Positions 15,930 through 41,817 of a DNA stretch of 53,469 bases are shown in pieces. How positions within the stretch are numbered: position 1 is the first letter of the stretch; every line of letters begins with the position of its first letter. Position numbers and translations under genes: made by a program. The notes beneath the pieces were generated by a model. That model was not told the origin of the DNA and did no database searches. It worked only from the letters and a program-made list of their open reading frames with translations. This DNA is from Candidatus Fermentithermobacillaceae bacterium UBA3907 (lineage in GTDB: Bacteria; Bacillota; Sulfobacillia; Fermentithermobacillales; Fermentithermobacillaceae): contig DGFF01000068.1 of assembly GCA_002391545.1 (NCBI GenBank), forward strand, positions 653 through 54,121, given 5' to 3'.

Positions 15930-15962
15930 AAAGGGGAGCCAATTGGCTCCCCTTTTGTTTTA
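15930..15962. terminator. bidirectional rho-independent terminator between glmM and the convergent C69 gene
   Basis: Perfect stem AAAGGGGAGCC (15930-15940), loop AATT, GGCTCCCCTTT (15945-15955), then TTGTTTT. The complementary strand has an equivalent run. Confidence 0.85.
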
Positions 15963-17384: not shown

Positions 17385-17416
17385 GCTTTTGCTCCTTCCA
17401 GAATTTGTTTCTAACG

Positions 17417-18889
17417 TTATTCTACCTTTGGTATGAGTCTAAGGCCTTGGCGCATTGCCCATACTTGCCCTTTAGGGTCAAACAAGAAGAACAAGTTTAT
17501 ATCTTCTTCATCGCCCAGGACTTCCCTATCTCTTTGGACAGATATGGAGTCGTATCCTGTTGGTGTTGCACAGTATACGGACTCACGGTTTTTGCCATGG
17601 GTGATGTAAAATAGGTTTTTGCCGTCAGACGCAATGGTAATTTCTGTGCCTTCTCCAGACGCGTAACGACCAATGAGTTTTTCCAGATGATAAGAAGGAA
17701 TATCTACTGGGGGCATGCGGAGCTCGTTGTAACTTCTGGGAAGGCCCAGGATTGCATTTACGGCTGCAAAGAAGACTTTGGAGGCAGGAAAATTGCTCAA
17801 GTTGGACAAGACTGCCACTTTTATTTTTCTTTCTGGTATAAACCCGATGTATGAGGCTACACCTACTATATTCCCGCCGTGATGTATGAGTGTTATGCCA
17901 TTTGAGTATTCAGGCTCTGTTTGGAAACCGTACCCGTAGTAACTTCCATCTTCCAGAGAGTAATATGGAGAGGTTATCCTATCTATTGTTCCTGTTTCAC
18001 ATATTCTGTTGCCGTCGCAAAAACCTTTGTTCACATAAAGATCCATGTATCTAAGCAAGTCGTTTATTGATGATTTTAGAGAACCTGACGAAACAAAAGC
18101 TTCCCTATGCTTCCAAGGTGCTTTAACCACATTTCCATGATCATCACGATAATACAATCCTTGGACTTCAAAATTGGACAGGGCGGCTAAGTCGATAAAC
18201 GTGTGATCCATACCCAAAGGATCCAAAATGTTCTTTTTGAGGTATTGCTCGTAAGTGAGACCTGATACCCTTTGGATTACTTCTCCAAGGAGGGAGAAGC
18301 AATCGTTTGAATAACTCAAGTACTGTCCCGGTCTACCAAGGAGTTCAAATTCATAGTTACCTATAAATTGCAACAGGTCTTTGTTGTCTCTTATTACTGG
18401 TTTACCTCCTAGGCTGTCCTCGGGCTTGTTCTTTAGGCAATTGGGATCTTTTAGGTATTCTTCTAGCGTAATGCTAAGCTCATTTACGTAATCGAGGGAC
18501 GGAAGAGGGGGTATTCCTGACGTATGAGTAAGAAACGAATGAATTGTCATTTTGTCTGCCGCCCATGATCTTAGGATAGTAAATTCGGGAAGGTAACGTT
18601 TCACTGGATGTGCAGTAGATAGTTTCTTTTCTTCAGCCAATAGATTGATGCACAGCGCAGTAAAAGATTTGGTCACTGATGCAAGCCCGAACACAGTATC
18701 TGGTGTTATAGGTTGTCTCTTTTCTACATCTGAAACACCGAACCCTTTGAAGTATTCCAAGTTATCGCCGATAGAGATCCCTACGCCAATTCCTGGAACG
18801 CCAGTTTTTTCCTTCAACTCAGAAACATAATCTTCAAACTCGTTGGGATTAAAATTCTTTAGCACTTTATCTCCTCCATACTTACTCAT
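17417..18889 (-). CDS. serine hydrolase, beta-lactamase/DD-peptidase fold (S12 family, D-aminopeptidase/esterase-like)
   Basis: SxxK motif (ASVTKSF), YxN motif (LSYSNDCF) and HGG (LIHHGGNIVG) at the position where KTG is usually found. A C-terminal extra domain is present. Confidence 0.8.
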   Translation of the reverse strand: MSKYGGDKVLKNFNPNEFEDYVSELKEKTGVPGIGVGISIGDNLEYFKGFGVSDVEKRQPITPDTVFGLASVTKSFTALCINLLAEEKKLSTAHPVKRYLPEFTILRSWAADKMTIHSFLTHTSGIPPLPSLDYVNELSITLEEYLKDPNCLKNKPEDSLGGKPVIRDNKDLLQFIGNYEFELLGRPGQYLSYSNDCFSLLGEVIQRVSGLTYEQYLKKNILDPLGMDHTFIDLAALSNFEVQGLYYRDDHGNVVKAPWKHREAFVSSGSLKSSINDLLRYMDLYVNKGFCDGNRICETGTIDRITSPYYSLEDGSYYGYGFQTEPEYSNGITLIHHGGNIVGVASYIGFIPERKIKVAVLSNLSNFPASKVFFAAVNAILGLPRSYNELRMPPVDIPSYHLEKLIGRYASGEGTEITIASDGKNLFYITHGKNRESVYCATPTGYDSISVQRDREVLGDEEDINLFFLFDPKGQVWAMRQGLRLIPKVE

Positions 18890-21767: not shown

Positions 21768-22841
21768 TTGCTACCATATGCCTTAGGATTTCCCCGGGTG
21801 CGTCTTTCTAGCTTACCGACTCCTTTCGAAGAAGTCCCTCGTTTTTCGGAAGCTTTGGGAGGGCCAAGGATATTTGTTAAAAGGGATGATGCTACCAGTC
21901 TTGCACTAGGGGGTAACAAAGCTAGAAAACTCGAGTTCCTTTTGGGGGAAGCGTTGGAAGAGGGTTGTGATACAATAATTACTGCAGGAGGTCCTCAATC
22001 TAACCATGCGAGGATGACTGCAGCGGCTGCAGTAAAGTTTGGCATGGAGCCAATCTTAGTATTAGATGGCGAAGATCCTGGATATAGGCAGGGAAACTTG
22101 CTGTTAGACTATATATTAGGCGCACGTTTGATTTTCACAGGCGGTAGGGAAACTGCCGATGTAATATCCGAAACTGTGGAAAGCCTAAAATGTGATGGTA
22201 AGAAGCCTTATGTAATACCGGTAGGTGGCTCCAACTGTATAGGAACGTTGGGTTACATAGGCTGTGCAGCAGAACTTGCAGAGGATTTCAAGAAGGCCGG
22301 AGTTGAGCCCAAAAGTTTGTATCTGGCTACAGGATCGTCGGGTACATTGGCAGGGTTGCTACTTGGGAAGTTGCTATATAACCTTTCTTTTTCCATCAAG
22401 GGAGTTGCAGTAAGCCCAGGCGCAGATAAAAAAGAAGATAGGGCTTTACAACTTGCCTTAGAAGCTTCAGATCTTCTAAAAGCAAAGGTGGAAAGCCTAA
22501 ATGAATCTCCACTTTCCTCGATTGATATTCAGGAGTTGGAGAATAGGATATGTGAGGTTTCTATTGAAAATATAAAAGATGAATTTAGCGTCACTGAGGA
22601 TTTCGTGGGTCCAGGGTATGCTGTGCCCACGCCCGAAGGAATTGAGGCTATTTTTGCTTTGGCTCGAACAGAAGGCATAATCACCGATCCTGTGTACACA
22701 GGGAAGGCTTTAGCGGGCTTGATGGCGGACGTACGTAATGGATTGTACGATAAAGACGATGTAGTTGTTTTTCTCCACACAGGAGGAACGCCTGCCAACT
22801 TTGCCTATGTAGAAGCTTTTCTGGAAGGGGGATTTAAATGA
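21768..22841 (+). CDS. PLP-dependent D-cysteine desulfhydrase / ACC deaminase family protein
   Basis: GGNKARKLEFLLGEALEEGCDTIITAGGPQSNHARMTAAAA contains the PLP-lysine region. GGSNCIGTLGY and HTGG motifs are also present. Confidence 0.85.
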   Translation: MLPYALGFPRVRLSSLPTPFEEVPRFSEALGGPRIFVKRDDATSLALGGNKARKLEFLLGEALEEGCDTIITAGGPQSNHARMTAAAAVKFGMEPILVLDGEDPGYRQGNLLLDYILGARLIFTGGRETADVISETVESLKCDGKKPYVIPVGGSNCIGTLGYIGCAAELAEDFKKAGVEPKSLYLATGSSGTLAGLLLGKLLYNLSFSIKGVAVSPGADKKEDRALQLALEASDLLKAKVESLNESPLSSIDIQELENRICEVSIENIKDEFSVTEDFVGPGYAVPTPEGIEAIFALARTEGIITDPVYTGKALAGLMADVRNGLYDKDDVVVFLHTGGTPANFAYVEAFLEGGFK

Positions 22842-23545
22842 AACCAGTTATAGGCATAACATCTAGCTGGGATGAGGAAAAACAGACGTCAGTATTGCCT
22901 TATGCGTACGTCGACGCTGTTTTGGAAGCGGGGGGAATTCCTGTTTTACTCCCAATAATGCCCAAGGATGATGCTGAAGAGATCTTGTCAAACATAGATG
23001 GAGTGTTATTTCCAGGTGGTGCAGACGTGGACCCTCAGAGATATGGAGAACGTCCCCACGAAAAGCTGAACTACGTTGATCCTAGGCTTGACGAGATGGA
23101 GTTGAATATAGCCAAATTGTCGCTTGAAAGGAGATTACCTATACTTGGTATTTGCAGAGGTTGCCAGTTGGTTAATGTGGCGGCAGGCGGCACCTTGGTT
23201 CAAGATATACCGTCTCAGGTAGGCGGAGCTATGAAGCATTCCCAGAAAGCTCCTAGGTGGCACGGAACCCATGAAGTGATTCTTGAAGAAGGTTGTTTCG
23301 CTGCAGACATCTTCGAAACCCGTAGGTTTGCGGTAAATTCGTTCCATCATCAGTCAGTAAGGGATGCAGGAGATGGTCTTAGTATTTCAGGTAGAGCTTT
23401 AGATGGTGTTGCAGAAGTAACTGAGGGAAGGCAAGGTTTCGTACTGCTTTTGCAATGGCATCCTGAGGCCATGTGGAGGAAGAACCCTCTATTTCTCAAG
23501 CCATTTAAGGCATTTGTGAAGGCGGCGGAACAGTTTAGCTACTGA
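22838..23545 (+). CDS. gamma-glutamyl-gamma-aminobutyrate hydrolase family protein (peptidase C26, class I glutamine amidotransferase fold)
   Basis: Nucleophile elbow GICRGCQLVNVAAGG and QWHPE. ATGA start/stop overlap with the preceding gene. Confidence 0.85.
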   Translation: MKPVIGITSSWDEEKQTSVLPYAYVDAVLEAGGIPVLLPIMPKDDAEEILSNIDGVLFPGGADVDPQRYGERPHEKLNYVDPRLDEMELNIAKLSLERRLPILGICRGCQLVNVAAGGTLVQDIPSQVGGAMKHSQKAPRWHGTHEVILEEGCFAADIFETRRFAVNSFHHQSVRDAGDGLSISGRALDGVAEVTEGRQGFVLLLQWHPEAMWRKNPLFLKPFKAFVKAAEQFSY

Positions 23546-23566
23546 CTTGGAGGATATTAGTTAATA

Positions 23567-24691
23567 ATGGGATACGATATTTCACAGTCTACGAGTAACC
23601 CTAGGCGTCGTTTCAGAGATTATGGATTGTCGGTAGGATCGCTATCTACAGGTCCAATGAATGCCATAACAGATGTTCCAGGAGTTTTAGTGGGTCACTC
23701 AACAATCATAGAAGGGGAAGGCCCCCTAATTCCCGGTAAAGGACCAGTTAGGACAGGAGTTACTGTAGTACGCCCTCATCCAGGGAATTTGTTTAGAGAA
23801 AAGGTGAGAGGGGCCGTACACATAATAAATGGTTTTGGAAAGGCAACGGGTATTGCGCAAATACAGGAACTTGGTATTATAGAGACACCGATTGTTTTAA
23901 CCAACACTTTAAGCGTAGGTTCAGCGTGGGATAGTCTTTGTGAATACATGCTGGACTGCAATCCTGGAATAGGAATATCTGAGGGAACGGTTAACCCTGT
24001 GGTTTTGGAATGCAATGATGGTTATCTAAATGATATAAGAGGAAGGCATGTTAAAAGAGAACATGTGTTTGATGCCCTAGAAAATGCTTGTGGAGGATCT
24101 GTAGCAGAGGGTAATGTTGGATCTGGCACAGGTATGTCGTGTCTAGGTTTTAAAGGAGGCATAGGTACATCTTCAAGGGTTATAGACCTCACAAAACAAT
24201 GGACGCTAGGTGTTCTGGTAATGTCCAACTTCGGCAAGATGGAAGATTTGCTAATCTGTGGCATCCCCGTAGGTATGGAGTTAAGTAAAGATATTGAAAT
24301 GCAACCGCAAACACCCCCAGGTTCCGTTGTGATTATAGTAGGCACTGATGCTCCTTGCTCAGATAGACAGCTGTTGAGGATCGCACGACGATGTCAGGGT
24401 GGACTGGCTCGCGTCGGGTCCATGTTTTCTCATGGCAGTGGCGATTTTGTCCTGGCGTTCTCTACAGCAAACAAGGCATTAGAATCAGATACTCATGACC
24501 CTTGTGTCCAGGAATATATAAGAGATGACTCACGAGCTATGGGTCTCCTATTTAGAGCGTGCATAGAAGCAGTGGAAGAGAGTGTGCTCAATTCTTTATT
24601 TATGGCAGAGACCATGATAGGACGGGACGGTAATACAAAGTATGGCATACCCATTGATATGGTTCTTGATATATTAGATAGATCTACATAG
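23567..24691 (+). CDS. peptidase S58 (DmpA/BapA-type, P1 family) aminopeptidase
   Basis: PGKGPVRTGVTVVRP, VGSGTGMSCLGFKGGIGTSS (Ntn self-processing region) and GSGDFVLAFST. Confidence 0.8.
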   Translation: MGYDISQSTSNPRRRFRDYGLSVGSLSTGPMNAITDVPGVLVGHSTIIEGEGPLIPGKGPVRTGVTVVRPHPGNLFREKVRGAVHIINGFGKATGIAQIQELGIIETPIVLTNTLSVGSAWDSLCEYMLDCNPGIGISEGTVNPVVLECNDGYLNDIRGRHVKREHVFDALENACGGSVAEGNVGSGTGMSCLGFKGGIGTSSRVIDLTKQWTLGVLVMSNFGKMEDLLICGIPVGMELSKDIEMQPQTPPGSVVIIVGTDAPCSDRQLLRIARRCQGGLARVGSMFSHGSGDFVLAFSTANKALESDTHDPCVQEYIRDDSRAMGLLFRACIEAVEESVLNSLFMAETMIGRDGNTKYGIPIDMVLDILDRST

Positions 24692-24816: not shown

Positions 24817-25533
24817 ATGATGGCAGAAGCAAAAGATGAGGGAACAAACGCCGAGAAGCAAACGCCAGACGTAGGTAGACCCTCATATCTTAGGGGCCCA
24901 TTGCCCAAAAAGAGCGATGTTCAACTCGAAGGGGAAACGGTTGCGCCAACAACTGAAGATCTCGATGAAGGGTCGGCTGCTAAAGTAGCAAAGAAGGATG
25001 TACAAGCAGAAGATGTTGAGCTGTACTCATGGAAGGTATGGCTTCTTCCACTTCGTCCCTGGATTTCTGTTTTAGTAGTGGCATCAATTATAGGGTGCCT
25101 AGGTCTTGCGTATTGGGCATTTCCTCAGTTATTCTTTGTATTAATAATGGCAGTTATATTGTTAAATAGGCTCGCGGTCTATCTATTTCCAGTAAAATAT
25201 GTTCTTACAGAAGAAACGGTAGGTTTCCGAACGTTTCTAGCTAGAGATATTCGCTCTTGGGATAAAGTTCTCACCTACTACGAGTTTGAAGACGGGGTAT
25301 TGGTCTCCCATGATACGCGGACGGTGAGAGGACGGCTGAAGTCTGGTTTGTTTTTGTATTACTATCCTGATGGTTCAAATAAAGAGCAGGTGCTCCAAAT
25401 AGTAAAATCAAAACTAAAACCCCCTGACGAAGCGTTTGTGGAAAAGGACCGACTTATTGAACAGCAGAAGAAGGAAAAAGGAGGGGTAGGTTCAGCAATC
25501 GAACGAACTCGTAAAGTCAAATCCAAAAAGTAG
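24817..25533 (+). CDS. membrane protein: acidic N-tail, TM hairpin, PH-like domain, Lys-rich tail
   Basis: There are two hydrophobic helices (WISVLVVASIIGCLGLAYWAF and LFFVLIMAVILLNRLAVYLF). A beta-rich segment follows (VKYVLTEETVGFRTF...VLTYYEFEDGVLVS) that resembles bacterial PH (YdbS-like) domains. The tail is QQKKEKGG...RKVKSKK. The RBS GGGGAGG precedes the ATG. Confidence 0.55.
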   Translation: MMAEAKDEGTNAEKQTPDVGRPSYLRGPLPKKSDVQLEGETVAPTTEDLDEGSAAKVAKKDVQAEDVELYSWKVWLLPLRPWISVLVVASIIGCLGLAYWAFPQLFFVLIMAVILLNRLAVYLFPVKYVLTEETVGFRTFLARDIRSWDKVLTYYEFEDGVLVSHDTRTVRGRLKSGLFLYYYPDGSNKEQVLQIVKSKLKPPDEAFVEKDRLIEQQKKEKGGVGSAIERTRKVKSKK

Positions 25534-25634: not shown

Positions 25635-27569
25635 ATGGAGGATATTGAGCGAAAGGAAGGCGTTGATGAAAGACAAGCAGAGTCTATTCTCGCGACTGAC
25701 GTTGGATCGACGACTACGAAGGCTATACTCATAGAAAAACGTGGTGATGAGTATCGACTGGTGACTCGCGGTGAGATGCCAACAACAGTAGAGGAACCAT
25801 GGGAAGATGTGATGATTGGGGTCAAAAAAGCCATTCGACGTATTGAAGAACTTATCGATAGGCGCATTTTGGATGATTCAGGCAACTTGATCAGGCCGAA
25901 AAGGGGAGAAGAAGGTGTAGACCTCTATGTCTCAACGTCATCTGCAGGTGGCGGATTGCAGATGATGGTTGCAGGCTTAGTTAAAAGTATAAGTGCTAGC
26001 TCGGCTCACCGTGCTGCTTTGGGTGCCGGAGCTGTAGTCTTGGACGTGATCTCAGTAGATGACGGTAGAACACAATCAGAGCAAATTACCAGAATTACAG
26101 AACTGCGTCCTGACATTATCTTGATGTCAGGTGGTGTTGATGGAGGCTCAGTTGCTTATATAGCGTCAATTGCTGAGATCATAAAACAGGCTAATCCCCA
26201 GCCAAGGTTCGGTGCAACGTATAAGTTGCCGCTTATTTACGCAGGAAACAAAGACGCCCAAGACATTGTAGTGGAAATATGTGGCAAAGACATGGATGTT
26301 CACGTAGTCGATAACTTAAGACCCAGGCATGATCTTGAGAATTTAGGGCCGGCTAGAGAGATTATACACGAGATCTTTATGAATCACGTTATGGCTCAGG
26401 CACCTGGCTATGCCACACTAATGGAGTGGGTCGATGCTACTATTATGCCTACTCCAGGCGCAGTTGGAAAACTGATTATGCTCCTTGCTGAAAGGGGTAA
26501 CCAGAACATTATAGGTGTGGATATTGGTGGCGCTACAACTGACGTGTTCTCCAGTTTTGAAGATACTTTCACGAGGACCGTGTCTGCAAACCTTGGGATG
26601 AGTTATTCGATCTGCAACGTTCTAGAAGAAGCAGGTTTTGAAAATATACTGCGCTGGGTGCCATTTGAGGTTGATCGTTCACGCATCTCAGACTGGATCG
26701 CAAATAAGATGATTCGCCCAACAACAGTTCCGCAAACCATGTATCACCTGATAGTTGAGCAAGCTATTGCTAGAGAAGCTCTTCGTTTGAGTTTCGAACA
26801 TCACAAAACCCTTGCCAAAAAGGTTGAACAACAAGAGGTAGGACTCCTAGTTACAGGTCGCTCAACAGTAACATCTGCATCAGGGCGAGATATAATTGAC
26901 ATGATTCATCTAGATATGTTGGTTGGGTCAGGTGGAGCTTTGTCACACGCTCCGAGGCGACAACAAGCTGCCCTCATGCTCATTGATGCTTTTCAACCTT
27001 GTGGCGTTACGTATCTAGCAGTCGACTCCATATTTATGATGCCGCACCTAGGTGTCCTTTCATCAGTTTATCCTGACATAGCTGAAGAAGTCTTCTACAA
27101 AGACTGTTTGGTGAAACTAGGAACTGTTATAGCACCGGTTGGACCGTTTAAACCTGGTAGAGTAACCGCTACAGTTAAGATAAAAATGCCGGACGGGACT
27201 GTATGCGAGCACCAAATCAAAGGTGGGGAGCTTGAAGTTATCCCGCTAGGTGTTGATGAGGTAGCAATGTGTAGGATACAGCCTCACGGTGGGAATATAG
27301 ATGTAGGTGCTGGAAGAGGTAAGGCGATAGAGAAAGAGATTCACGGTGGGTTGGTTGGTATTATCCTAGATGGTAGAGGGCGTCCCTTGGAACTTCCGGA
27401 AGACAATATTGAACGCATTAATTTGGTTACATCTTGGTTTGAGGCGATGGATATTTATCCTATGGATGTCATCCGTGAATTGCAGGAAAAATATCCACCT
27501 ACTAGAACCAGCGCAAGCAATCAAGGAGGGAAGAAGCGTGGCGGACTTTTCAGTAGATCTACCCGATGA
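25635..27569 (+). CDS. GlmL/MutL-like ASKHA-fold ATPase, paralog A1
   Basis: ASKHA phosphate-1 (LATDVGSTTTKAILIEK) and phosphate-2 (GVDIGGATTDVFS) motifs, plus STSSAGGGLQMMVAG and GSGGALSHAPRR. I recognise this as the glutamate mutase L (MutL, PF13941-type) family, with a long C-terminal extension. The RBS TAAGGAGGG is 7 nt upstream. Confidence 0.8.
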   Translation: MEDIERKEGVDERQAESILATDVGSTTTKAILIEKRGDEYRLVTRGEMPTTVEEPWEDVMIGVKKAIRRIEELIDRRILDDSGNLIRPKRGEEGVDLYVSTSSAGGGLQMMVAGLVKSISASSAHRAALGAGAVVLDVISVDDGRTQSEQITRITELRPDIILMSGGVDGGSVAYIASIAEIIKQANPQPRFGATYKLPLIYAGNKDAQDIVVEICGKDMDVHVVDNLRPRHDLENLGPAREIIHEIFMNHVMAQAPGYATLMEWVDATIMPTPGAVGKLIMLLAERGNQNIIGVDIGGATTDVFSSFEDTFTRTVSANLGMSYSICNVLEEAGFENILRWVPFEVDRSRISDWIANKMIRPTTVPQTMYHLIVEQAIAREALRLSFEHHKTLAKKVEQQEVGLLVTGRSTVTSASGRDIIDMIHLDMLVGSGGALSHAPRRQQAALMLIDAFQPCGVTYLAVDSIFMMPHLGVLSSVYPDIAEEVFYKDCLVKLGTVIAPVGPFKPGRVTATVKIKMPDGTVCEHQIKGGELEVIPLGVDEVAMCRIQPHGGNIDVGAGRGKAIEKEIHGGLVGIILDGRGRPLELPEDNIERINLVTSWFEAMDIYPMDVIRELQEKYPPTRTSASNQGGKKRGGLFSRSTR

Positions 27570-28896
27570 CGTGAAGAAGCAAATCACCCTAATTCGTAAG
27601 ACGCGTAAGTTGCCTTTACCAGGAGAAGTCTTAGTTAATGTGGGAGATATTGTAAAACCTGATACACCGGTGGCAAGGATTGCGGTTAAACCTGGAATTC
27701 CTTGGGTAGTACCGGCAGCTAGATTGTTGGGAATTGAGCCAGATAAGCTTTCTAGTGCAATGCTTAAGGAAGTAGGGGATCGAGTAAAGACCAAGGAAGT
27801 GTTTGCTAGGGCAGATCAAGGACTATACGGACGTAAGGAACTTGAATCCCCGACTGACGGTGTCATAGAGGCAGTATCTGATCGTTCAGGCAGGGTCACT
27901 ATTCGTGAAGAATTTGGGCGTGAAGACCCTCCTGTTACGTTTGATGTTGCTTTTCAGTTGAAGTGCAGACCAGAGGAACTTCCCCAGCATATGCTTAGGA
28001 CAGTAGGACAAGAAGTAAAGAAAGACCAGATGATCGCTAAGAAAGGCGAGGGTCAAGCTTTCTTTACAAAGACTGCTCTTGCACCTGTGTCAGGGGTAAT
28101 ATCGGAGATAAATACCAAAACGGGTACAGTCACTATTTCACGGCCCTTTAAAGAGGTTGTAGTGTATGCCTATATAGAAGGTGAAGTTGTCGAAATCATT
28201 GAGGATCGTGGCTGTGTGATCGAGACCCCAGGGATTAAGATAAACGGTATTTTCGGTCTCGGGCGAGAAACCCATGGGGAGATTAAAGTTCTGGTTGATG
28301 GGCCAGAGCAGGTATTAGAAGCTGACATGATAACAGAGGACTGCAAAGATAAGATAATCATTGGCGGTTCTTTTGCCACTAACGAGGCACTGGACAAGGC
28401 ACTGGAAGTCGGAGTTAAGGGAGTTGTTACAGGCACTGCCAACTACTTTAACCTTACCCAGTCCCTAGGTGTCAAATTGGGTATAGGCATTACTGGGCAA
28501 GAGGATATACCCATAACAGTGGTTTTAATGGAAGGGTTTGGCCATTTGAATATGAGAAGAAGTGTATGGGAAACGTTGGCAGCTCTTGAAGGTATGACTG
28601 CATCTATGAACGGTGCGACCCAGATTAGAGCTGGAGCAATAAGGCCGGAGATAATCGTGCCATTCTTCGGGTATACTGGCGAACTAGCCGAGCCTACTTT
28701 TTATGATGTTGACTTGCGCCAAGGAATGCCTGTGCGTATTGTAAGTGAACCATACTTTGGAGTAGTCGGTGAAGTGGCGGAAATAGTTAAAGAGCCAGTC
28801 ATGATAGAAACAGAAGCTAAGGTTCCTGTGGTTAAGGTGAAGTTGGAAAACGGTGACAAAGTAGTTGTGCCGAGAGCAAACGTGGAGATGATCTAG
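27538..28896 (+). CDS. uncharacterized multi-barrel partner protein, paralog B1
   Basis: The GTG at 27538 is preceded by AAGGAGGG (27523-27530). It gives VADFSVDLPDDVKKQITLIRKTRKLPLPGEVLV, collinear with the N-terminus of the 31447 gene. The listed upstream extension (27370-27537) only overlaps the end of A1. Lipoyl-like hybrid-barrel motifs are present (SPTDGVIEAV, APVSGVISEI), along with EGFGH, NGATQIRAG and VPRANVE. Confidence 0.75.
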   Translation: MADFSVDLPDDVKKQITLIRKTRKLPLPGEVLVNVGDIVKPDTPVARIAVKPGIPWVVPAARLLGIEPDKLSSAMLKEVGDRVKTKEVFARADQGLYGRKELESPTDGVIEAVSDRSGRVTIREEFGREDPPVTFDVAFQLKCRPEELPQHMLRTVGQEVKKDQMIAKKGEGQAFFTKTALAPVSGVISEINTKTGTVTISRPFKEVVVYAYIEGEVVEIIEDRGCVIETPGIKINGIFGLGRETHGEIKVLVDGPEQVLEADMITEDCKDKIIIGGSFATNEALDKALEVGVKGVVTGTANYFNLTQSLGVKLGIGITGQEDIPITVVLMEGFGHLNMRRSVWETLAALEGMTASMNGATQIRAGAIRPEIIVPFFGYTGELAEPTFYDVDLRQGMPVRIVSEPYFGVVGEVAEIVKEPVMIETEAKVPVVKVKLENGDKVVVPRANVEMI

Positions 28897-28959
28897 ACGG
28901 CACAGAACACAATTGCCTCTGGTCTTTTCGCTCGTTCTCATAATTGGGCGATCAACGCC

Positions 28960-28990
28960 TTGGTCAAGCTAAGGTAAGTAGGTGTATAAT
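28960..28990 (+). promoter_or_regulatory. putative promoter for the second module (small protein-A2-B2)
   Basis: TTGGTC (28960-28965), a 19-nt spacer, then a perfect TATAAT (28985-28990) preceded by TG. The RBS TGAGGAGGTG (29018-29027) and the ATG at 29034 follow. Confidence 0.45.
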
Positions 28991-29033
28991 ATTACAGTCA
29001 TGGAGTATCTGGGATTATGAGGAGGTGTCATAA

Positions 29034-29471
29034 ATGCTGCAATTTCGTGATCCCATTGATGATGAGAGACGAGACGAGATCATCGAGGCTATGGCAAATC
29101 AGATAGTGCGGTTTGGGATGACAGTCCCTGCCATATTCTTTTTGGAGATGAGCAAGCCACTAAGCTTCATAGGCGGTCAGGCTATGCATTTTTTCGCGCC
29201 AATCGTTGGTGTATTTTTCGATACGTTTGAGGATTATGCTTTCTTCTTCGACAATAGAGATAATGTGGAACTCTTGATTCAGCGTCTGGAATTGGCAGCT
29301 ATGGAAGAAAAGGCCGAAGAAAAGAAGGCAAAAGAAGCCAAGAAAGAATCTAAGAAAGAGACTAAGAAGGCTAAGAGATGGAAGAAGGGTTCTGCACTAG
29401 ATGAAGCTATGAACATGGAAAGCGATGGGAACCGGGAGACTGATTCTCCAGAAGAAGGACCTAAAGAATGA
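29034..29471 (+). CDS. small hypothetical protein with hydrophobic core and Lys/Glu-rich tail
   Basis: Strong RBS. Hydrophobic segments are MTVPAIFFLEM and FIGGQAMHFFAPIVGVFF. A low-complexity stretch EEKAEEKKAKEAKKESKKETKKAKRWKKG follows (nt about 29304-29390, a purine-rich tract). I recognise no family. Confidence 0.55.
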   Translation: MLQFRDPIDDERRDEIIEAMANQIVRFGMTVPAIFFLEMSKPLSFIGGQAMHFFAPIVGVFFDTFEDYAFFFDNRDNVELLIQRLELAAMEEKAEEKKAKEAKKESKKETKKAKRWKKGSALDEAMNMESDGNRETDSPEEGPKE

Positions 29472-29566
29472 TTCAAGATTTAGAGGATTTACGTAAAGCG
29501 ATGTCGTAATGTACATGGTAGATATTTATCACGATGTTAGTTGGCAGCAAGGGAGGGGAACAGTTC

Positions 29567-31429
29567 GTGCAGGAAGGTAAAACGGTGTTGAACCCAGATG
29601 AGATAAATACTGTTCTGGCAACAGACTGCGGTTCTACTACAACTAAGGCTATCCTCATTGAAAAGGTTGACGATGAGTATCGACTCATTGTGAGAGGTGA
29701 AGCACCTACTACAGTAGAAGCACCTTACGAAGATGTTACTCTAGGTGCGCGAAACGCGATTAGAGAAGTTGAAGAGCTCACCGGTAGGCGTTTTCTTAGC
29801 GACGATGGAGTCATTACTCCTACTCAACCAGATGGTTCCGGGGCTGACATATTCATGTCAACCTCTTCAGCAGGTGGCGGATTGCAGATGATGGTAGCCG
29901 GAGTTGTCAAGACGATGACGGCAGAATCGGCAGCCAGGGCTGCTCTTGGAGCAGGCGCTATAGTTATGGATGTTATTGCAGTTGATGATGGAAGGAAGCC
30001 TCATGAGAAGATCCAAAGGATAAGGCAATTGAGACCAGATATGATTCTTCTTTCTGGAGGAATTGACGGTGGAACTATAACCCACGTCGTAGAAATTGCA
30101 GAGCTTATCGCTGCAGCAGAACCCAAACCTCGTCTGGGAATAGGATACAAACTGCCGGTTATTTACGCTGGCAACAAGTTTGCGAGAAAGCATGTGGAAG
30201 AAATTCTTGGCGAGAAGACGGACTTGAGGGTTGTAGATAATTTAAGACCGGTTTTGGAAAAAGAGGTTCTAGGACCTGCAAGAGAAGCTATCCATAATCT
30301 TTTTATGGAGCACGTTATGGCACAGGCCCCTGGTTACAACAAACTTATGACCTGGACACCTGTACCTATTATGCCAACTCCTGGGGCGGTAGGCAACTGT
30401 ATGCAGACAGCGGCCAAAGAATATGATATGAGCGTCATAGGTGTGGACATAGGTGGAGCTACTACTGACGTCTTTTCAGTGTTCGGCGAATATTTTAATA
30501 GAACGGTGTCTGCAAACCTAGGGATGAGCTATTCCATATGTAATGTGCTTCTTGAAACGGGTCTACCCAACATAATGAGGTGGATTCCGTTTAAGATGGA
30601 TGAGGCGAACCTTAGGAACAGGATCAGAAACAAGATGATTCGACCCACCACCATCCCCCAGACTTTGGACGATCTTATAATTGAACAAGGCATAGCCAGA
30701 GAAGCGCTTCGCCTTGCGTTTGAGCATCACAAAAGTCTCGCGGTAGGGCTTCGAGGTGTTCATAGGGAAAGAACAATCGGGGACGTGTTTGAGCAGACCG
30801 GATCGGGTGAAACGTACATTGATATGATGGAATTGGGTATGTTAATTGGGTCCGGAGGAACACTCTCTCACGCGCCTAGACGGGCGCAAGCCGCTCTTAT
30901 GTTGTTAGATGCTTTTCAACCCGAAGGGGAAACCATGTTAGCGGTTGACTCGATTTTCATGATGCCTCAACTGGGCATACTTGCTACGGTCCATCCGAAA
31001 GCAGCTATGCACGTTTTTGATAAGGACTGTCTGGTGAAATTAGGGACAACCATTGCTCCTTTAGGTCCCAGCAGCAGCAATCTTAAATTTGGAGAACCTT
31101 GTGTGACTGTAACAATTGAATACAATGAGCAAGTCATTGAGGAATCGGTACCTTATGGATCAATGAAGGTTATAAAGATTCCTGAAGAGACGACGGTAGA
31201 CGCTGTCATTCGGCCTGAAAGGCACTTTGATGCTGGCAATGGATATGGACGTGTTGTTGAAACCCAAGTTCACGGTGGCGTAGTTGGCGTGATAATAGAC
31301 TGTCGGGGACGTCCTACTGTTCTTCCAGAAGATCCGGTTTTGAGGAACCAGAAGCTAGTCGAATGGTTTAAAGCTATGGATATGTATCCAGCAGATCTAC
31401 TTGATAAATATGCGGCTCAAGGCGTATAG
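29567..31429 (+). CDS. GlmL/MutL-like ASKHA-fold ATPase, paralog A2
   Basis: Collinear with A1, with long identical runs: STSSAGGGLQMMVAG, HVMAQAPGY, IMPTPGAVG, IGVDIGGATTDVFS, RTVSANLGMSYSICNVL, NKMIRPTT, LSHAPRR, LAVDSIFMMP and KDCLVKLGT. The GTG at 29567 is preceded by AAGGGAGGGG (29549-29558). The ORF track's ATG at 29534 is an alternative start. Confidence 0.8.
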   Translation: MQEGKTVLNPDEINTVLATDCGSTTTKAILIEKVDDEYRLIVRGEAPTTVEAPYEDVTLGARNAIREVEELTGRRFLSDDGVITPTQPDGSGADIFMSTSSAGGGLQMMVAGVVKTMTAESAARAALGAGAIVMDVIAVDDGRKPHEKIQRIRQLRPDMILLSGGIDGGTITHVVEIAELIAAAEPKPRLGIGYKLPVIYAGNKFARKHVEEILGEKTDLRVVDNLRPVLEKEVLGPAREAIHNLFMEHVMAQAPGYNKLMTWTPVPIMPTPGAVGNCMQTAAKEYDMSVIGVDIGGATTDVFSVFGEYFNRTVSANLGMSYSICNVLLETGLPNIMRWIPFKMDEANLRNRIRNKMIRPTTIPQTLDDLIIEQGIAREALRLAFEHHKSLAVGLRGVHRERTIGDVFEQTGSGETYIDMMELGMLIGSGGTLSHAPRRAQAALMLLDAFQPEGETMLAVDSIFMMPQLGILATVHPKAAMHVFDKDCLVKLGTTIAPLGPSSSNLKFGEPCVTVTIEYNEQVIEESVPYGSMKVIKIPEETTVDAVIRPERHFDAGNGYGRVVETQVHGGVVGVIIDCRGRPTVLPEDPVLRNQKLVEWFKAMDMYPADLLDKYAAQGV

Positions 31430-31446
31430 AGGGGAGGAAGGAGTAA

Positions 31447-32574
31447 ATGGCACACGCATATACACCAGGATTAAAGGTTACGGAAAAGGCGGTTATAAGG
31501 AAAACACGACGCCTTCCTATCCCCGGCGAAGTTTTGGTAGAAAAGGGGCAGAAAGTATCACCTGACACAATCGTAGCGAGAACCAGTATCCCAGGTAATC
31601 CGCAGACTGTTAACGTTGCCAATCTTTTGGGCATAGAGGCTACTGATGTTCCAGACTACATGGTCAAAAAGGAAGGGGACTTTGTCGAGGAAGGGGAGGT
31701 TTTGGCACGGTATACTTATTTCTTCGGCCGTTTCAAACGTGAGGTAACGTCACCTGTAACTGGCACAATAGAGATGATCTCAAAAGTTACAGGGCAAGTG
31801 ACACTCAGAGAGCCCCCCATTCCTGTTGAGGTGGATGCCTATATTGAAGGCATAGTAGAGGAGATTATTCCAAGGGAAGGCGTAGTTGTGGTCACTGAAG
31901 GCGCGTTTATACAAGGGATTTTTGGCGTAGGTGGAGAAACTACAGGGACTATAAGAGTTGCAGTTGATTCGCCTGACGATGTGCTCACCGCTTCTCACAT
32001 AGAAAGTGACGATGACGGTAAGGTTGTAGTTGGTGGTTCGCTTATAACCAGCGATGCAATTCAAAGATGTGCAGAAGTAGGAGCGCGCGGTATTGTAGCA
32101 GGTGGCATAATAGATCATGACCTAGTTGAGTACCTAGGTTTTGATATCGGAGTAGCAATTACCGGTCACGAAGACGTACCGGTGACCCTCATAATAACCG
32201 AGGGTTTCGGTCAGATGAAGATGGCGGACAGGACTTTTAACTTGCTAAAGAAACTGTCTGGATTGAGAGCGTGCATAAATGGAGCTACGCAGATCAGAGC
32301 CGGTGTTATGCGCCCCGAGATAATAGTTCCAGGATATGAAGGAGAAGGTGAATCAGCCTCTGATGACCGGTATTTGAGTGAAGGCTTGGTAATTGGAACA
32401 CCTGTAAGAATTATTAGAGAGCCTTATTTCGGGTTGCTTGCTGAGGTTGTAGAATTGCCTCCCGAGCTTCAGCTCATCGAATCCGAATCTAGGGTTAGGG
32501 TTCTCAAAGCGAGGCTGGAAGACGGGACTATAGTTACTGTTCCGAGAGCAAACGTTGAAATAATCGAGGCGTAA
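31447..32574 (+). CDS. uncharacterized multi-barrel partner protein, paralog B2
   Basis: 375 aa. It shares IRKTR(K/R)LP(L/I)PGEVLV, AYIEG, EGFG, NGATQIRAG, RPEIIVP and VPRANVE with B1. The RBS GGGGAGGAAGGAG lies upstream. It starts 17 nt after the A2 stop. Confidence 0.75.
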   Translation: MAHAYTPGLKVTEKAVIRKTRRLPIPGEVLVEKGQKVSPDTIVARTSIPGNPQTVNVANLLGIEATDVPDYMVKKEGDFVEEGEVLARYTYFFGRFKREVTSPVTGTIEMISKVTGQVTLREPPIPVEVDAYIEGIVEEIIPREGVVVVTEGAFIQGIFGVGGETTGTIRVAVDSPDDVLTASHIESDDDGKVVVGGSLITSDAIQRCAEVGARGIVAGGIIDHDLVEYLGFDIGVAITGHEDVPVTLIITEGFGQMKMADRTFNLLKKLSGLRACINGATQIRAGVMRPEIIVPGYEGEGESASDDRYLSEGLVIGTPVRIIREPYFGLLAEVVELPPELQLIESESRVRVLKARLEDGTIVTVPRANVEIIEA

Positions 32575-32605: not shown

Positions 32606-32645
32606 GGACGACATAGATGCGACCTTTGTCGTCCTTTTTGTTTTT
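32606..32645 (+). terminator. rho-independent terminator after module 2
   Basis: Stem GGACGACA (32606-32613) / TGTCGTCC (32627-32634), a 13-nt loop, then TTTTTGTTTTT. Confidence 0.75.
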
Positions 32646-32725: not shown

Positions 32726-33733
32726 ATGGAAGGAGGATTAAAGAGCAGGCTAACAACGTTGTTACCTGCCATAAAAATGGATTATGACGTTCTTAAACAG
32801 TTTCTAAAAGAGCCTGTGATTCCTATGGCGTGCAAGTTTGGCGATTATTTGCCAGTTCTACTAGATGTACGCCAAGTTTCACAAATTGTAGTGCCTGCTG
32901 AACTCCCCGATGCCGCTGTTTTGGGCGCTACTATTGATAACAGATTTCGAAGCACGATAGACGGCACAGGAACTTCTCAGGAGTCTTTAGTACAGCAGCT
33001 CAAGCGAAAAGCCAGTAGGTTAGGGCGAAAAGACAAGGCCAAAGAAACCCGAATGAAAAGTGACCTTTTAAGGGAACTATACACTGAAGTAGTTGAAAAC
33101 TCAGTTTCATACAAAGTGTATATGGAATGGATAGAAAAGTTAGGGTTGGAGAAGAAAATACTAGAGTCCAGACCTACTATACGGGAAGTATACATCTTCA
33201 AAGATATTTCCCTTGCTGTAGAACTTGAGGAACTACAGGATATGCGTAAGGATATACGGTGGGATTTTTTGCGAGCCCACGATAGATCTGTTCCACCAAC
33301 ATTTTGGGCGTTTCCAGAAGAACTGAGTCCTGCCTTTTTGAGAAAACTTGGCGATTTGTTGGGATACCCTGCTTGTTGCATAGACAGATATATTTTCGAT
33401 AGGTCCTCAGGGATTTTGAGCCCAGAAGTAAGGGCTGCTAACCAGATTATACATGCGGAAAGCCCTGAGGAAGTAGATAAATTCGCTTACTTTACCAAGG
33501 ACTTTTTCCCGTGTCAACCTGATTGCGAAAGGGCCGCAGAAATAGGTAGGAATATGTATGAGAGAGTCAAAAGACTGGACGCTGATTTAGGAGAACTTTA
33601 TCTTGAATATTTGTCGGACAATGTGAATTTGATTAGGCAGTATCCTGAGATTATAGAGGAAAAGGCCAGGCGTCTAGAGCGTGAACGTGAGGGATTTCAG
33701 AGACAGGGAGATGACGTGGAGGATGAAAGATGA
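32726..33733 (+). CDS. hypothetical four-cysteine protein (GYPACC...FFPCQPDC), possibly DUF483-like
   Basis: 335 aa. The central part is charged and coiled-coil-like. The C-terminal half contains LGYPACCIDRY and FFPCQPDCERAAE. The start codon is uncertain. Confidence 0.5.
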   Translation: MEGGLKSRLTTLLPAIKMDYDVLKQFLKEPVIPMACKFGDYLPVLLDVRQVSQIVVPAELPDAAVLGATIDNRFRSTIDGTGTSQESLVQQLKRKASRLGRKDKAKETRMKSDLLRELYTEVVENSVSYKVYMEWIEKLGLEKKILESRPTIREVYIFKDISLAVELEELQDMRKDIRWDFLRAHDRSVPPTFWAFPEELSPAFLRKLGDLLGYPACCIDRYIFDRSSGILSPEVRAANQIIHAESPEEVDKFAYFTKDFFPCQPDCERAAEIGRNMYERVKRLDADLGELYLEYLSDNVNLIRQYPEIIEEKARRLEREREGFQRQGDDVEDER

Positions 33734-39742: not shown

Positions 39743-40807
39743 GTGGACATTAAGCAATTCTTAAAAGACGCATCCATGGCCCATGGGGTTAGTGGCTTTG
39801 AATTTGCAGACATTGCTAAGATTGTTCAAGAACGAATGTCAGGATTAGTTGATGAAATTCGCACAGATGCCCTTGGGAACATTATAGGAGTGCGTTATGG
39901 GGATACAACGGACCCCTTAAGGCCCAAGGTGATGCTCGCAGGGCACATGGACGAAATTGGGCTTATGGTCACGAAAATTGAAGAAGGCGGTTTTCTGCGA
40001 TTTACCCAAGTAGGTGGAGTGGATCCCCGAATATTGCCGGGCCATGAAGTTATTGTGTACGGGAAAAAACCTCTTACAGGGATAATAGGGGTAAAACCTC
40101 CACACTTAACTTCAAGGGAAGAAGCTGCACGTGCCCATAAAATGAGCGACTTATTTATTGATGTTGGCATGCCTGAAGAGATGGTAAGAGATCTGGTGAG
40201 GGTAGGGGATGTTGTTACCTTCAAGCGCCAGGTGAGCGAGCTTACCTCAGACGTGCTGGCCGGCAAGTCTTTTGATGACCGCGCAGGTGTGGCTGTGATG
40301 CTAGTATGCTTAGAGGAATTAAAGCGGTACAAAGTAGCAGCGGACGTTTACGCAGTTGCTACTACTCAGGAGGAAGTGGGGCTAAGAGGGGCTATGGTAT
40401 CTACGTATGGCATTATACCTGATATAGGTATAGCTATTGACGTTTGCCACGCAGAGACTCCTGGAGTTCCAGATTGGAAGACTTCATCTATGGGAAAGGG
40501 TCCTGCCCTTACCCAGGGTGCTAACATTCACCCTAAGGTGTACCAAGGATTAGAGAGGGCAGCTAAGGAACTGGGTATTCCAGTGCAGCCTGATGTAGCT
40601 CCTGCAGCAACTGGGACTGATGCGTGGGCCATGCAGGTTGCTCGGTGTGGGGTAGCTACAGGATTAGTTTCTATCCCAGAAAGGTATATGCATACTTCAG
40701 TTGAAACTTTAAGTATTTCAGATGTGGAGAAGGCGGGAAGACTTATCGCTAGATTTATATCGTCAGTAGACGCTTGTTTTGTGAAGGAGTTGAAAAAATG
40801 GACCTAA
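39743..40807 (+). CDS. M42 family metallo-aminopeptidase (TET/FrvX/YsdC-like), copy 1
   Basis: MLAGHMDEIGLMV, SFDDRAGVAVM and TTQEEVGLRGA motifs. Confidence 0.88.
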   Translation: MDIKQFLKDASMAHGVSGFEFADIAKIVQERMSGLVDEIRTDALGNIIGVRYGDTTDPLRPKVMLAGHMDEIGLMVTKIEEGGFLRFTQVGGVDPRILPGHEVIVYGKKPLTGIIGVKPPHLTSREEAARAHKMSDLFIDVGMPEEMVRDLVRVGDVVTFKRQVSELTSDVLAGKSFDDRAGVAVMLVCLEELKRYKVAADVYAVATTQEEVGLRGAMVSTYGIIPDIGIAIDVCHAETPGVPDWKTSSMGKGPALTQGANIHPKVYQGLERAAKELGIPVQPDVAPAATGTDAWAMQVARCGVATGLVSIPERYMHTSVETLSISDVEKAGRLIARFISSVDACFVKELKKWT

Positions 40808-41817
40808 AAACCCTTACATCTCTTTCCGGCGTTTCAGGTGATGAATATGAGGTTCGGGACGGGATAATAAAAGAGCTAGATAGCATGGGAGTATCGTACG
40901 AATGCGACGTGCTGGGCAACGTAATTGCAAGAAAAGGCAACAAAGGGCCCAAAGTCATTATAGATGCTCATATGGACGAAGTTGGGCTGGTAATTACGTA
41001 TATTGAAAAGAACGGATTTCTTAGATTTGCTACAGTTGGGGGTATAGATTCTAGAGTTTTGGTGTCCAAGCGTGTTTTGATAGGTAAACATAGAACACCT
41101 GGCGTAATAGGAGCCAAGGCCATACACCTCCAGGAGCGGGATGAACGTAACCGAGTAATACCTTCAGACCAGCTTTTCATCGATATCGGCGCTAGTTCGA
41201 AAGAAGAAGCGGAACGCAAAGTCAAACAAGGTGACTATGTGATCTTTGATACCGAATATGAAGAACTATCTGACGGAATAGTAAAGGCCAAAGGTTTGGA
41301 CGACAGGGTAGGCTGCGCTATATTGTTGGAGGTTCTCAAGGAGCCTTGGGAGGATATAAACCTTTACGCAGTATTTGCCACTCAAGAGGAAGTGGGACTA
41401 AGAGGCGCTAAAGTAGCCGCATATGGCATTGAGCCTGATATGGGTTTGGCCATAGAGGGTACCGTTTGCGCAGATATACCAGGTACTGACAAAGAGTTTC
41501 AAGCTACACGTCTAGGTCAAGGAGCTGCTCTTAGCATTATGGACTCAGGTTCCATACCTAACAGGGCAATGTTGAAAGAGCTAATAAGGTTAGCTAAAGA
41601 AAACGACATTCCTGTGCAGTTCCGGGAGGCTACTTCAGGCGGAAACGATGCGGCTGCGATCCAACAGGCTAGGGCTGGATGTCCAGTAGCCTCTGTTTCT
41701 GTACCTTGTCGGTACATACACACGCCCTGTTCTTTAATGTCAATGTCAGATTTTGAAGCAGCTAAACAATTGGTAATTGCTTTCTTGAAAAGTGTTGAAG
41801 GAGGTTTTAGACCGTGA
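40798..41817 (+). CDS. M42 family metallo-aminopeptidase, copy 2
   Basis: IDAHMDEVGLVI, GLDDRVGCAIL and ATQEEVGLRGA. ATG 40798 is preceded by GAAGGAG (40783-40789). The listed start at 40774 is probably too early. Confidence 0.88.
   Translation: MDLKTLTSLSGVSGDEYEVRDGIIKELDSMGVSYECDVLGNVIARKGNKGPKVIIDAHMDEVGLVITYIEKNGFLRFATVGGIDSRVLVSKRVLIGKHRTPGVIGAKAIHLQERDERNRVIPSDQLFIDIGASSKEEAERKVKQGDYVIFDTEYEELSDGIVKAKGLDDRVGCAILLEVLKEPWEDINLYAVFATQEEVGLRGAKVAAYGIEPDMGLAIEGTVCADIPGTDKEFQATRLGQGAALSIMDSGSIPNRAMLKELIRLAKENDIPVQFREATSGGNDAAAIQQARAGCPVASVSVPCRYIHTPCSLMSMSDFEAAKQLVIAFLKSVEGGFRP

Follow-up and report, generated by a model that had tools for sequence, protein, structure and literature searches.

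Two paralogous pairs of a MutL-domain ASKHA protein and an unnamed partner belong to a conserved gene set that may include a membrane-associated machine

We analyse a 53,469-nucleotide (nt) stretch of contig DGFF01000068.1 (assembly GCA_002391545.1, forward-strand positions 653-54,121), here called the window, whose own positions serve as coordinates throughout. It contains two adjacent gene pairs, A1-B1 and A2-B2, in each of which a long ASKHA-type protein (A) is followed by a partner protein (B). A preliminary description of this DNA had proposed that the pairs are paralogs, that A belongs to the glutamate mutase L family (GlmL/MutL), and that A and B together make up a distinct ATP-driven two-component machine; the four open reading frames (ORFs) lie where that description placed them. 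Two further genes that it did not mention, X between the pairs (29034-29471) and Y upstream (24817-25533), belong to the same conserved gene set, which in many lineages also includes a module of membrane proteins and which, as a system, matches no characterized kind. The library of literature that was searched holds no description of either the A-B pair or the wider gene set. In the window's ORF table the order is Y-A1-B1-X-A2-B2, all co-directional, with the A1-B1 pair standing between Y and X. The features, with lengths in amino acids (aa), are as follows.

24817-25533, plus strand: Y, a membrane protein of 238 aa; its N-terminal tail is acidic, residues ~74-130 form a hydrophobic hairpin, and the C-terminal domain is PH-like.
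25635-27569, plus strand: A1, a 644-aa MutL-domain ASKHA protein, probably an ATPase, with a beta-rich C-terminal extension; the divergent paralog, partnered by the long B.
27538-28896, plus strand: B1, 452 aa from a GTG start, the 'long' partner, with an extra barrel-sandwich repeat of ~75 aa.
29034-29471, plus strand: X, a conserved small protein of 145 aa with a hydrophobic core motif and a Lys/Glu-rich tail.
29567-31429, plus strand: A2, a 620-aa MutL-domain ASKHA protein, probably an ATPase (631 aa from the ATG at 29534); the canonical ortholog of the single-copy A found elsewhere.
31447-32574, plus strand: B2, the canonical partner of 375 aa; an alpha/beta domain separates its barrel-sandwich beta domains from a KOW-like barrel.
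32619-32632, plus strand: a weak terminator-like hairpin and T-run from a consensus scan, 45 nt past B2.
32726-33733, plus strand: a DUF483-family gene of 335 aa, Cys-rich (CC...C...C), matching PF04467 above its cut-off (E = 4.2e-6); a possible accessory member.

The junctions within each pair are tight and agree to the nucleotide with the preliminary description. B1 starts at a GTG (27538) that lies 32 nt inside the 3' end of A1 and has its own AAGGAGGG 8 nt upstream, and public gene calls also give it a length of 452 aa; B2 starts at an ATG (31447) 17 nt past the A2 stop codon. The start of A2 is ambiguous in public gene calls, where 620-aa and 631-aa versions are both present. The GTG at 29567 has a GGGAGGGG site 8 nt upstream and the ATG at 29534 has no such site, and we prefer the GTG because a strong ribosome binding site precedes it alone. 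The same gene calls are found on identical contigs from anaerobic-digester metagenomes, and the closest named organism is Candidatus Fermentithermobacillus carboniphilus (83% for A2), of class DTU015, whose members are thermophilic and predicted to ferment peptides and amino acids (PMC10215811). A consensus scan of the region for promoters and terminators returned site counts equal to the shuffle expectation, and we therefore leave the transcription units undefined.

The two pairs are paralogs of each other, as had been proposed. A1 and A2 are identical at 349 of 619 positions (56%, E = 0), and all four identical runs quoted for them, including LAVDSIFMMP and KDCLVKLGT, are present. B1 and B2 share 168 of 440 positions (38%, E = 2e-85), and B1 is distinguished by an insert of ~75 aa, a repeat of the barrel before it. 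The same two pairs occupy the same positions in seven other Bacillota genomes, where A1-type proteins are 64-78% identical to A1 and about 55% identical to A2, the reverse holds for A2-type proteins, and the long B always accompanies the A1-type protein, recurring as a B-long subfamily of ~450 aa. A2 is 55-59% identical to archaeal A proteins, the same level as between A2 and A1. Because A2 is equally close to both, these identities mark A2-B2 as the canonical pair and A1-B1(long) as an old divergent paralog.

The Pfam MutL family (PF13941; gathering score 27 bits) was predicted to match A, and it does so along its whole length: A1 scores 413.7 bits (E = 1.2e-123, residues 18-491) and A2 scores 421.9 bits (E = 3.8e-126), each over model positions 1-450 of 450. 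The likeness to GlmL (NF040745) includes the MutL domain from end to end, the ASKHA motifs and the inserted STSSAGGG / SGGxDGG region. However, A1 and A2 score 234.9 and 224.2 bits against the GlmL model, about half of its equivalog cut-off of 475; they score 228.5 and 209 bits against Or-4 of the D-ornithine aminomutase cluster (NF040744, cut-off 600), a similarity of the same order, and 177.8 and 162.9 bits against the GlmL subfamily model TIGR01319 (cut-off 204.05). Since A scores below every one of these curated NCBIfam cut-offs, the database labels on its homologs ('glutamate mutase L', 'methylaspartate mutase' and, in JGI, 'TIGR01319 family') are over-annotations. In NCBI, records of identical or near-identical A proteins (P0121, P0123, P0140 and others) are named 'methylaspartate mutase' or 'glutamate mutase L'. 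Such labels are misleading and can plant a false B12-dependent glutamate fermentation in reconstructions from metagenome-assembled genomes.

GlmL is about 460 aa long and consists of the MutL domain only, whereas the A proteins that adjoin B have a median length of 618 aa (range 590-663). In A1 the match to the MutL model runs out at residue 491 of 644, and in A2 at residue 499 of 631; the MutL and GlmL models stop about 130-155 aa before the C-terminus, which shortens the C-terminal extension from the ~170 aa given earlier. In the predicted model this added domain is beta-rich, and it carries a conserved GGxxGxxxDxRGRP motif. Considered without its partners, A represents a new and distinct subfamily within a known domain family.

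The ASKHA phosphate motifs previously read in A are present, and across 53 A proteins DxGSTTTK, DIGGATTD and GSGG are 84-100% conserved; A is therefore likely to be an active ATPase or kinase. Both the phosphate-1, phosphate-2 and adenosine motifs and the fold place it among ASKHA proteins, with Foldseek probabilities of 1.0 to hydantoinase-A enzymes, Hsp70, PilM and FtsA. The A part finds its best structural matches in N-methylhydantoinase (9h03_A), acetophenone carboxylase (5l9w_B) and the beta subunit of acetone carboxylase (5svc_B); Hsp70, PilM and FtsA rank below them, and the template modelling (TM) scores to hydantoinase-A-type structures are low (0.18-0.29). The Hydantoinase_A family (PF01968, cut-off 22.9 bits) matches a 40-residue stretch at the second phosphate motif, with 26.8 bits in A1 and 22.3 bits in A2. 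A search of the PDB by sequence with A2 as query found no relative, and at E <= 0.1 neither the DDR nor the EutA family of Pfam matches A.

The preliminary description could not name B, and our searches place it in no characterized family and beside no solved relative. No Pfam or NCBIfam model matches B past its cut-off, the weak signals being to barrel-sandwich domains (RnfC_N at 23.0 bits, Biotin_lipoyl_2), and both the sequence search and the profile search of the PDB were empty. An AlphaFold2 model of B2 (predicted local distance difference test, pLDDT, 84.5) contains N-terminal barrel-sandwich-type beta domains, an alpha/beta domain at residues ~181-295 and a C-terminal KOW/SH3-like barrel. 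The earlier term 'barrel-rich' thus holds for both ends of the protein and misses the alpha/beta domain between them. Against the PDB, Foldseek matches only the C-terminal KOW barrel (the last ~60 residues, TM ~0.8 on the target), and the whole-protein TM of B to any PDB chain is at most 0.16 among the 50 best matches listed. Among the best 120 of 8000 scored homologs, all that are named are called 'hypothetical protein' except for one JGI label, 'NusG'; the likeness to NusG/Spt5 is a local KOW match, and B has no NGN domain.

B is widespread and strikingly well conserved. The family comprises 2608 clusters at 50% identity with E <= 1e-3 (560 with E <= 1e-30), and at least some 600 species-level genomes contain a match. 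Proteins from more than 15 phyla share 53-60% identity with B2, among them proteins from WOR-3, Zixibacteria, Eisenbacteria, Poribacteria, Ignavibacteria, Planctomycetota, Synergistia, Cloacimonadota, Bathyarchaeota and a Korarchaeota-type archaeon; between Bacillota and Bathyarchaeia the identity is ~55%. In 116 diverse members the invariant residues include R21, E164, E242, E252-G-F-G, T281, R284 and R289, which occur in Gly-rich loops (GxFGxGGE164, ITGxE242, TE252GFG and NGxTQIR284AGxxR289P), and they suggest a ligand or phosphate pocket.

Three more specific identities for B were considered and rejected. A lipoyl or biotinyl carrier should keep the hairpin lysine of such barrel-sandwich domains, and that position (K97) is Lys in 34 of the 116 members, Arg in 23, Thr in 18 and Ser in 12. 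A phospho-carrying swivel domain, as in PEP-utilising enzymes, does not fit the alpha/beta domain: T201 is kept in 54 of 116, there is no PF00391 match, and Foldseek returned no such structures. A relationship to RnfC/NqrA was dismissed on an hhalign alignment to RnfC of 43 columns with 7% probability.

We now turn to the partnership between A and B. Among 61 adjacent A-to-B pairs the median gap is 15 nt and 16 pairs overlap; A lies directly upstream of B in 39 of 65 evaluable B-anchored genome loci, and the arrangement of a long A (~600-660 aa) followed by B occurs twice in the window. In Marinimicrobia and Planctomycetota the two are joined into single proteins of 974-1022 aa, forming 44 clusters of A-B fusions, and a model of the fusion from a mixed paired and unpaired alignment has a predicted TM score (pTM) of 0.81 and a pLDDT of 81, both scores being for the model as a whole. 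Across 53 pairs, A-A and B-B pairwise identities are correlated (r = 0.82). Together, the tight adjacency, the 44 fusions and the correlated divergence indicate that A and B function together. Every full-length A in metagenome loci anchored on the membrane gene c5 (see below) likewise has B beside it. In one of these loci, L099, a small gene intervenes between A and B (L099:4766-5173); its match to the 8xMP (octameric membrane protein) family is weak and sub-threshold, scoring 26 bits where the cut-off is 30 (E = 8.7e-6).

The wider gene set was obtained by clustering the ORFs of 80 genome loci. Homologs of X occur in 35 loci from bacteria and archaea, and in most lineages X lies directly upstream of A (median gap 28 nt). 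It carries the motif VPAIxFLESxKPLSFxGxQ...EDRxNVE followed by a Lys/Glu-rich tail, and it has no Pfam, NCBIfam, PDB sequence or PDB profile relative. Homologs of Y lie directly upstream of X-A-B or A-B in ~20 loci, usually overlapping X (median -10 nt). Hydropathy places a hydrophobic hairpin at about residues 74-130 of Y, and 2-3 of 25 family members weakly match bacterial PH-domain models (bPH_6, 4.5e-5), beyond which Y has no convincing Pfam, NCBIfam or PDB relative. In the window, both Y and X lie upstream of A2-B2, and this copy of Y has an extra acidic N-terminal tail of ~70 aa. In one metagenome locus (L099:1680-2813) a SIR2_2-domain gene is inserted between X and A.

In many lineages A-B is followed by a set of four genes, c5-c7-c9-c8, whose order is invariant; between B and c5 the median gap is 69 nt, and 5 cases overlap. 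c5 is a predicted membrane protein of the DUF6754 family, often with an N-terminal fn3 domain that lies outside the cell by predicted topology, and its conserved domain is flanked by hydrophobic helices; c7 and c8 are predicted polytopic membrane proteins of ~210 aa; and c9, of ~280 aa with hydrophobic helices at its termini, is also a predicted membrane protein. The complete order Y-X-A-B-c5-c7-c9-c8 occurs in Zixibacteria, Eisenbacteria, Marinimicrobia, Synergistia, Fermentibacteria and others, and in Bathyarchaeota and Korarchaeota-type archaea the same components are clustered in a different order. Loci with the A-B fusion keep the order of the complete set: small genes occupy the places of Y and X, and the fusion, c5, c7, c9 and c8 follow with 4-nt overlaps. 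A reciprocal scan anchored on c5 gave 80 metagenome loci in which the module order is always c5-c7-c9-c8, with up to three tandem modules behind one A-B. Two or three tandem paralogous modules are seen in L093, L095, L097, L098, L105, L135 and L158, with a single A-B wherever it is visible. In basal relatives of the window's lineage (L010, L012, L013), c7, c9 or c8 lies directly upstream of A1.

The module proteins have no detectable homology to known transporters. For c7, c8 and c9 there is no convincing Pfam, NCBIfam or PDB relative, c9 also lacks a PDB profile match, and the PDB profile search with c5 matched only its N-terminal fn3 domain. By hhalign the components of the gene set show no detectable relationship among themselves; the idea that c7 and c8 are mutual paralogs forming a pseudo-symmetric pair was rejected at a probability of 0.3%. 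An Rnf/Nqr-like nature of c7, c8 and c9 was likewise rejected, with c5, c7, c8 and c9 aligning to RnfA, RnfE and RnfD at probabilities of 2.2% or less. The Rnf operon that lies past the window's end served as a negative comparison for B and for c7/c8: the sigma-54 gene rpoN is at the right edge of the window, and rnfC, rnfD and Rnf-Nqr subunit genes follow just beyond on the same contig (L168:188-5300). The neighbours of stand-alone c5-c8 modules are too heterogeneous to serve as a functional clue (acyl-CoA ligase, class II aldolase, XdhC, MobB, PurF, CitMHS transporter).

The preliminary description saw no B12 mutase, aminomutase or eliminase in the window, and family annotation together with an Rfam scan bears this out: no B12-binding, mutase or other B12 enzyme family is found in the 53 kb, and no Rfam model matches anywhere in the window, so it holds no cobalamin riboswitch. 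Nor is the pair normally embedded in B12-mutase operons elsewhere. No B12 family appears among those listed for the 150 nearest neighbours of A-bearing loci (families with at least two neighbours) or in individually annotated loci; diol or glycerol dehydratase and ethanolamine lyase genes are likewise missing from the window and from the listed neighbours. Nowhere in the loci examined does A adjoin glmS/glmE, and the neighbours found include no aminomutase gene, of the oraS/oraE type or any other; A has B, X and Y as its fixed partners, often with the membrane module. The A-B gene set is independent of B12 operons. The role of reactivase, or reactivating chaperone, that the preliminary description treated as established for GlmL is itself assigned only by analogy with diol dehydratase reactivase (PMC4682846).

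The most frequent neighbour outside the gene set is the glycine-cleavage P protein (11 of the 150 nearest neighbours); lineage-specific housekeeping genes (UDG, TsaE), peptidases and amidohydrolases are also among the most frequent families. In 8-11 loci from several FCB-type phyla, gcvT-gcvH-gcvPA-gcvPB directly precedes Y-X-A-B-c5-c7-c9-c8 and LplA directly follows c8; these include L077 (1082-5422, LplA at 12489-13232), L057, L058, L064, L089 and L123. A glycine riboswitch has no Rfam match in six of the glycine-cleavage-linked loci, and riboswitch control by either cobalamin or glycine was set aside, given no Rfam match there or in the window.

What might such a gene set do? Our preferred interpretation, held tentatively and with a confidence a little short of even, is that a membrane-associated machine has A-B as its ATP-using cytoplasmic core; in the simplest case A-B would energise the c5-c8 module or modules, perhaps for amino-acid transport. 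A and B would form one cytoplasmic complex rather than a helper of a B12 enzyme. A would bind and hydrolyse ATP, or transfer its phosphate, and B, as its obligate partner with an invariant Gly/Arg/Glu-rich pocket in its alpha/beta domain, would convert or pass on the work of A. Y, with its two hydrophobic helices and PH-like domain, and X would hold or couple the complex at the membrane, where A-B would energise one or several c5-c7-c9-c8 modules, in the simplest case to transport a substrate such as an amino acid. The energising of modules by A-B is suggested by the occurrence of one to three tandem modules behind a single A-B. In the window's lineage, A-B would have been duplicated long ago, with the membrane module not nearby. 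The glycine-cleavage neighbours, the LplA gene after c8, the flanking peptidases and the predicted fermentation of peptides and amino acids by the host class (PMC10215811) perhaps add an amino-acid theme to this picture. The earlier proposal of a distinct ATP-driven machine is supported, neither of the two outcomes that it had named as refuting having been observed: A and B form a distinct partnership with no B12 link, but 'two-component' is too narrow a term for a set that includes X, Y and, elsewhere, a membrane module.

Several observations weigh against a membrane-associated machine. The window itself contains no c5, c7, c9 or c8 homolog in a hidden Markov model search of its six-frame translation (E <= 10). 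A or B occurs within 10 kb in just 12 of 32 evaluable c5-anchored loci, leaving 20 of 32 with neither, and A is missing from within 8 kb of B in 24 of the 65 evaluable B-anchored loci (WOR-3, Poribacteria, Stahlbacteria); the linkage of A, B and c5-c8 is consequently frequent, not obligatory. No segment of X passes a simple hydropathy threshold for a transmembrane helix, and the nearest structural relatives of A are soluble enzymes. The glycine-cleavage association is confined to those 8-11 loci of related phyla, and we know of no transporter powered by an ASKHA ATPase.

B without A within 8 kb is found in a subset of L014-L082 (for example L025, L045, L054 and L071). In WOR-3 and Stahlbacteria, the lone B is followed by a PorV/PorQ-like gene and often by accA, and in Poribacteria it lies downstream of an ECF sigma factor gene and two ABC-2 permease genes.

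The strongest competing explanation, in our view unlikely though worth serious weight, is that A-B on its own makes up an ATP-dependent enzyme of the hydantoinase, oxoprolinase or acetone-carboxylase type. A would then phosphorylate a carbonyl, an amide or bicarbonate, B would replace the HyuB-type subunit as the catalytic or substrate-binding partner, and the membrane genes would merely import a substrate or export a product, for example with a cyclic amide yielding glycine or another amino acid. The hydantoinase-A enzymes (N-methylhydantoinase, 5-oxoprolinase, acetone and acetophenone carboxylases) resemble A in size (~620-700 aa), in their ATP motifs and in having an ASKHA core with an extra C-terminal beta domain; they supply the best Foldseek matches of A, and the weak Hydantoinase_A match falls on its second phosphate motif. 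The invariant, polar, Gly-rich pocket of B resembles a ligand or phosphate site, B has weak sub-threshold matches to phosphate-binding barrel enzymes, neither A nor B has a predicted membrane segment, and glycine-cleavage genes, amidohydrolases and peptidases are among the neighbours. However, the known enzymes are soluble and pair with a HyuB-type subunit, whereas A shows only a partial PF01968 match and is paired with an unrelated B that has no detectable enzyme-family relationship, in a context of membrane genes and with no HyuB-like gene in any locus. A soluble enzyme also leaves the coupled, conserved X and Y and the operonic membrane module unexplained, the surrounding genes are of a housekeeping kind and do not form a catabolic island, and a cross-domain identity of ~55-59% is unusually high for a niche catabolic enzyme. 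If A-B is nevertheless such an enzyme, it would represent a new ATP-dependent class with a novel catalytic partner.

A third explanation makes A a membrane-tethered, polymerising or scaffolding ASKHA protein in the manner of FtsA, PilM or MreB, which together with B, X and Y would organise an envelope or membrane-biogenesis complex formed by c5-c8 instead of powering transport. PilM and FtsA are among the structural matches of A, PilN binds PilM in a way of which the small membrane partners here are reminiscent, and the surroundings hold housekeeping, envelope and lipid genes (cdsA, plsX, a lipid kinase gene, ribosomal and tsa genes). The matches to PilM, FtsA and Hsp70 are nonetheless generic to the ASKHA fold, with lower rank and low TM; to our knowledge the MutL/hydantoinase-A branch has no polymerising member; and the invariant pocket of B suggests ligand chemistry instead, so that we judge a scaffold to be improbable.

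Least probable of all, to the point where we give it little credence, is a reactivase or chaperone in the style of GlmL/MutL, DdrAB, PduGH or EutA for a cobalamin-dependent or radical enzyme whose gene lies elsewhere in the genome: A and GlmL do have the whole Pfam MutL domain in common, and diol dehydratase reactivase too pairs a large ASKHA subunit with a small one, but A falls under the GlmL, Or-4 and GlmL-subfamily cut-offs, matches no DDR or EutA family, and has membrane proteins rather than B12 enzymes or riboswitches as its conserved surroundings, while B, at 375-450 aa, is unlike the small beta subunit of those ATPase-partner pairs.

Returning to a membrane-associated machine, its general layout would work like that of ECF-type ABC transporters, in which one cytoplasmic ATPase unit serves membrane components; here the genes for the putative unit either stand with the membrane modules, of which there are one to three paralogous copies in tandem, or are separated from them. 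The comparison is one of organisation, for here there is no ABC or P-loop ATPase and the membrane components have no transporter homology. In its strongest form, which we regard as an unlikely but specific proposal, Y-X-A-B with DUF6754/c7/c9/c8 would make up an ATP-driven membrane machine of a new class, conserved in Bacteria and Archaea, the simplest candidates being a primary-active transporter and a group translocation system. It would be driven by a hydantoinase-A/MutL-type ASKHA motor and not by a P-loop (ABC), P-type or rotary one, with a single motor serving one to three exchangeable modules. If our preferred interpretation is right, the use of an ASKHA-fold ATPase to power a membrane process would amount to a new kind of energy coupling. 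Whichever explanation applies, seven of the approximately eight components have no family name beyond a DUF and no solved structure, despite their spread over many, mostly uncultured, phyla.

The gene downstream of B2 may be a further component. A DUF483 gene lies within ~1.1 kb downstream of B2 in nine other Bacillota loci, and in the Bathyarchaeota loci L051 and L053 it adjoins the c8 membrane gene. An anti-phage defence system was considered and rejected: at E <= 0.01, PADLOC models match none of Y, A1, B1, X, A2, B2 and DUF483. Elsewhere the window is housekeeping in character (uvrABC, whiA, rapZ, cdaA-ybbR-glmM, peptidases, tsaEBD, rimI, tldD/pmbA and iscS-nifU). Peptidase genes are dense at 22838-24691, 39743-42806 and 15960-18889, coding for C26, S58 (DmpA-type), three tandem M42 and C69 peptidases and a beta-lactamase-fold protein, a density that fits the peptide-fermenting lifestyle proposed for class DTU015 (PMC10215811).

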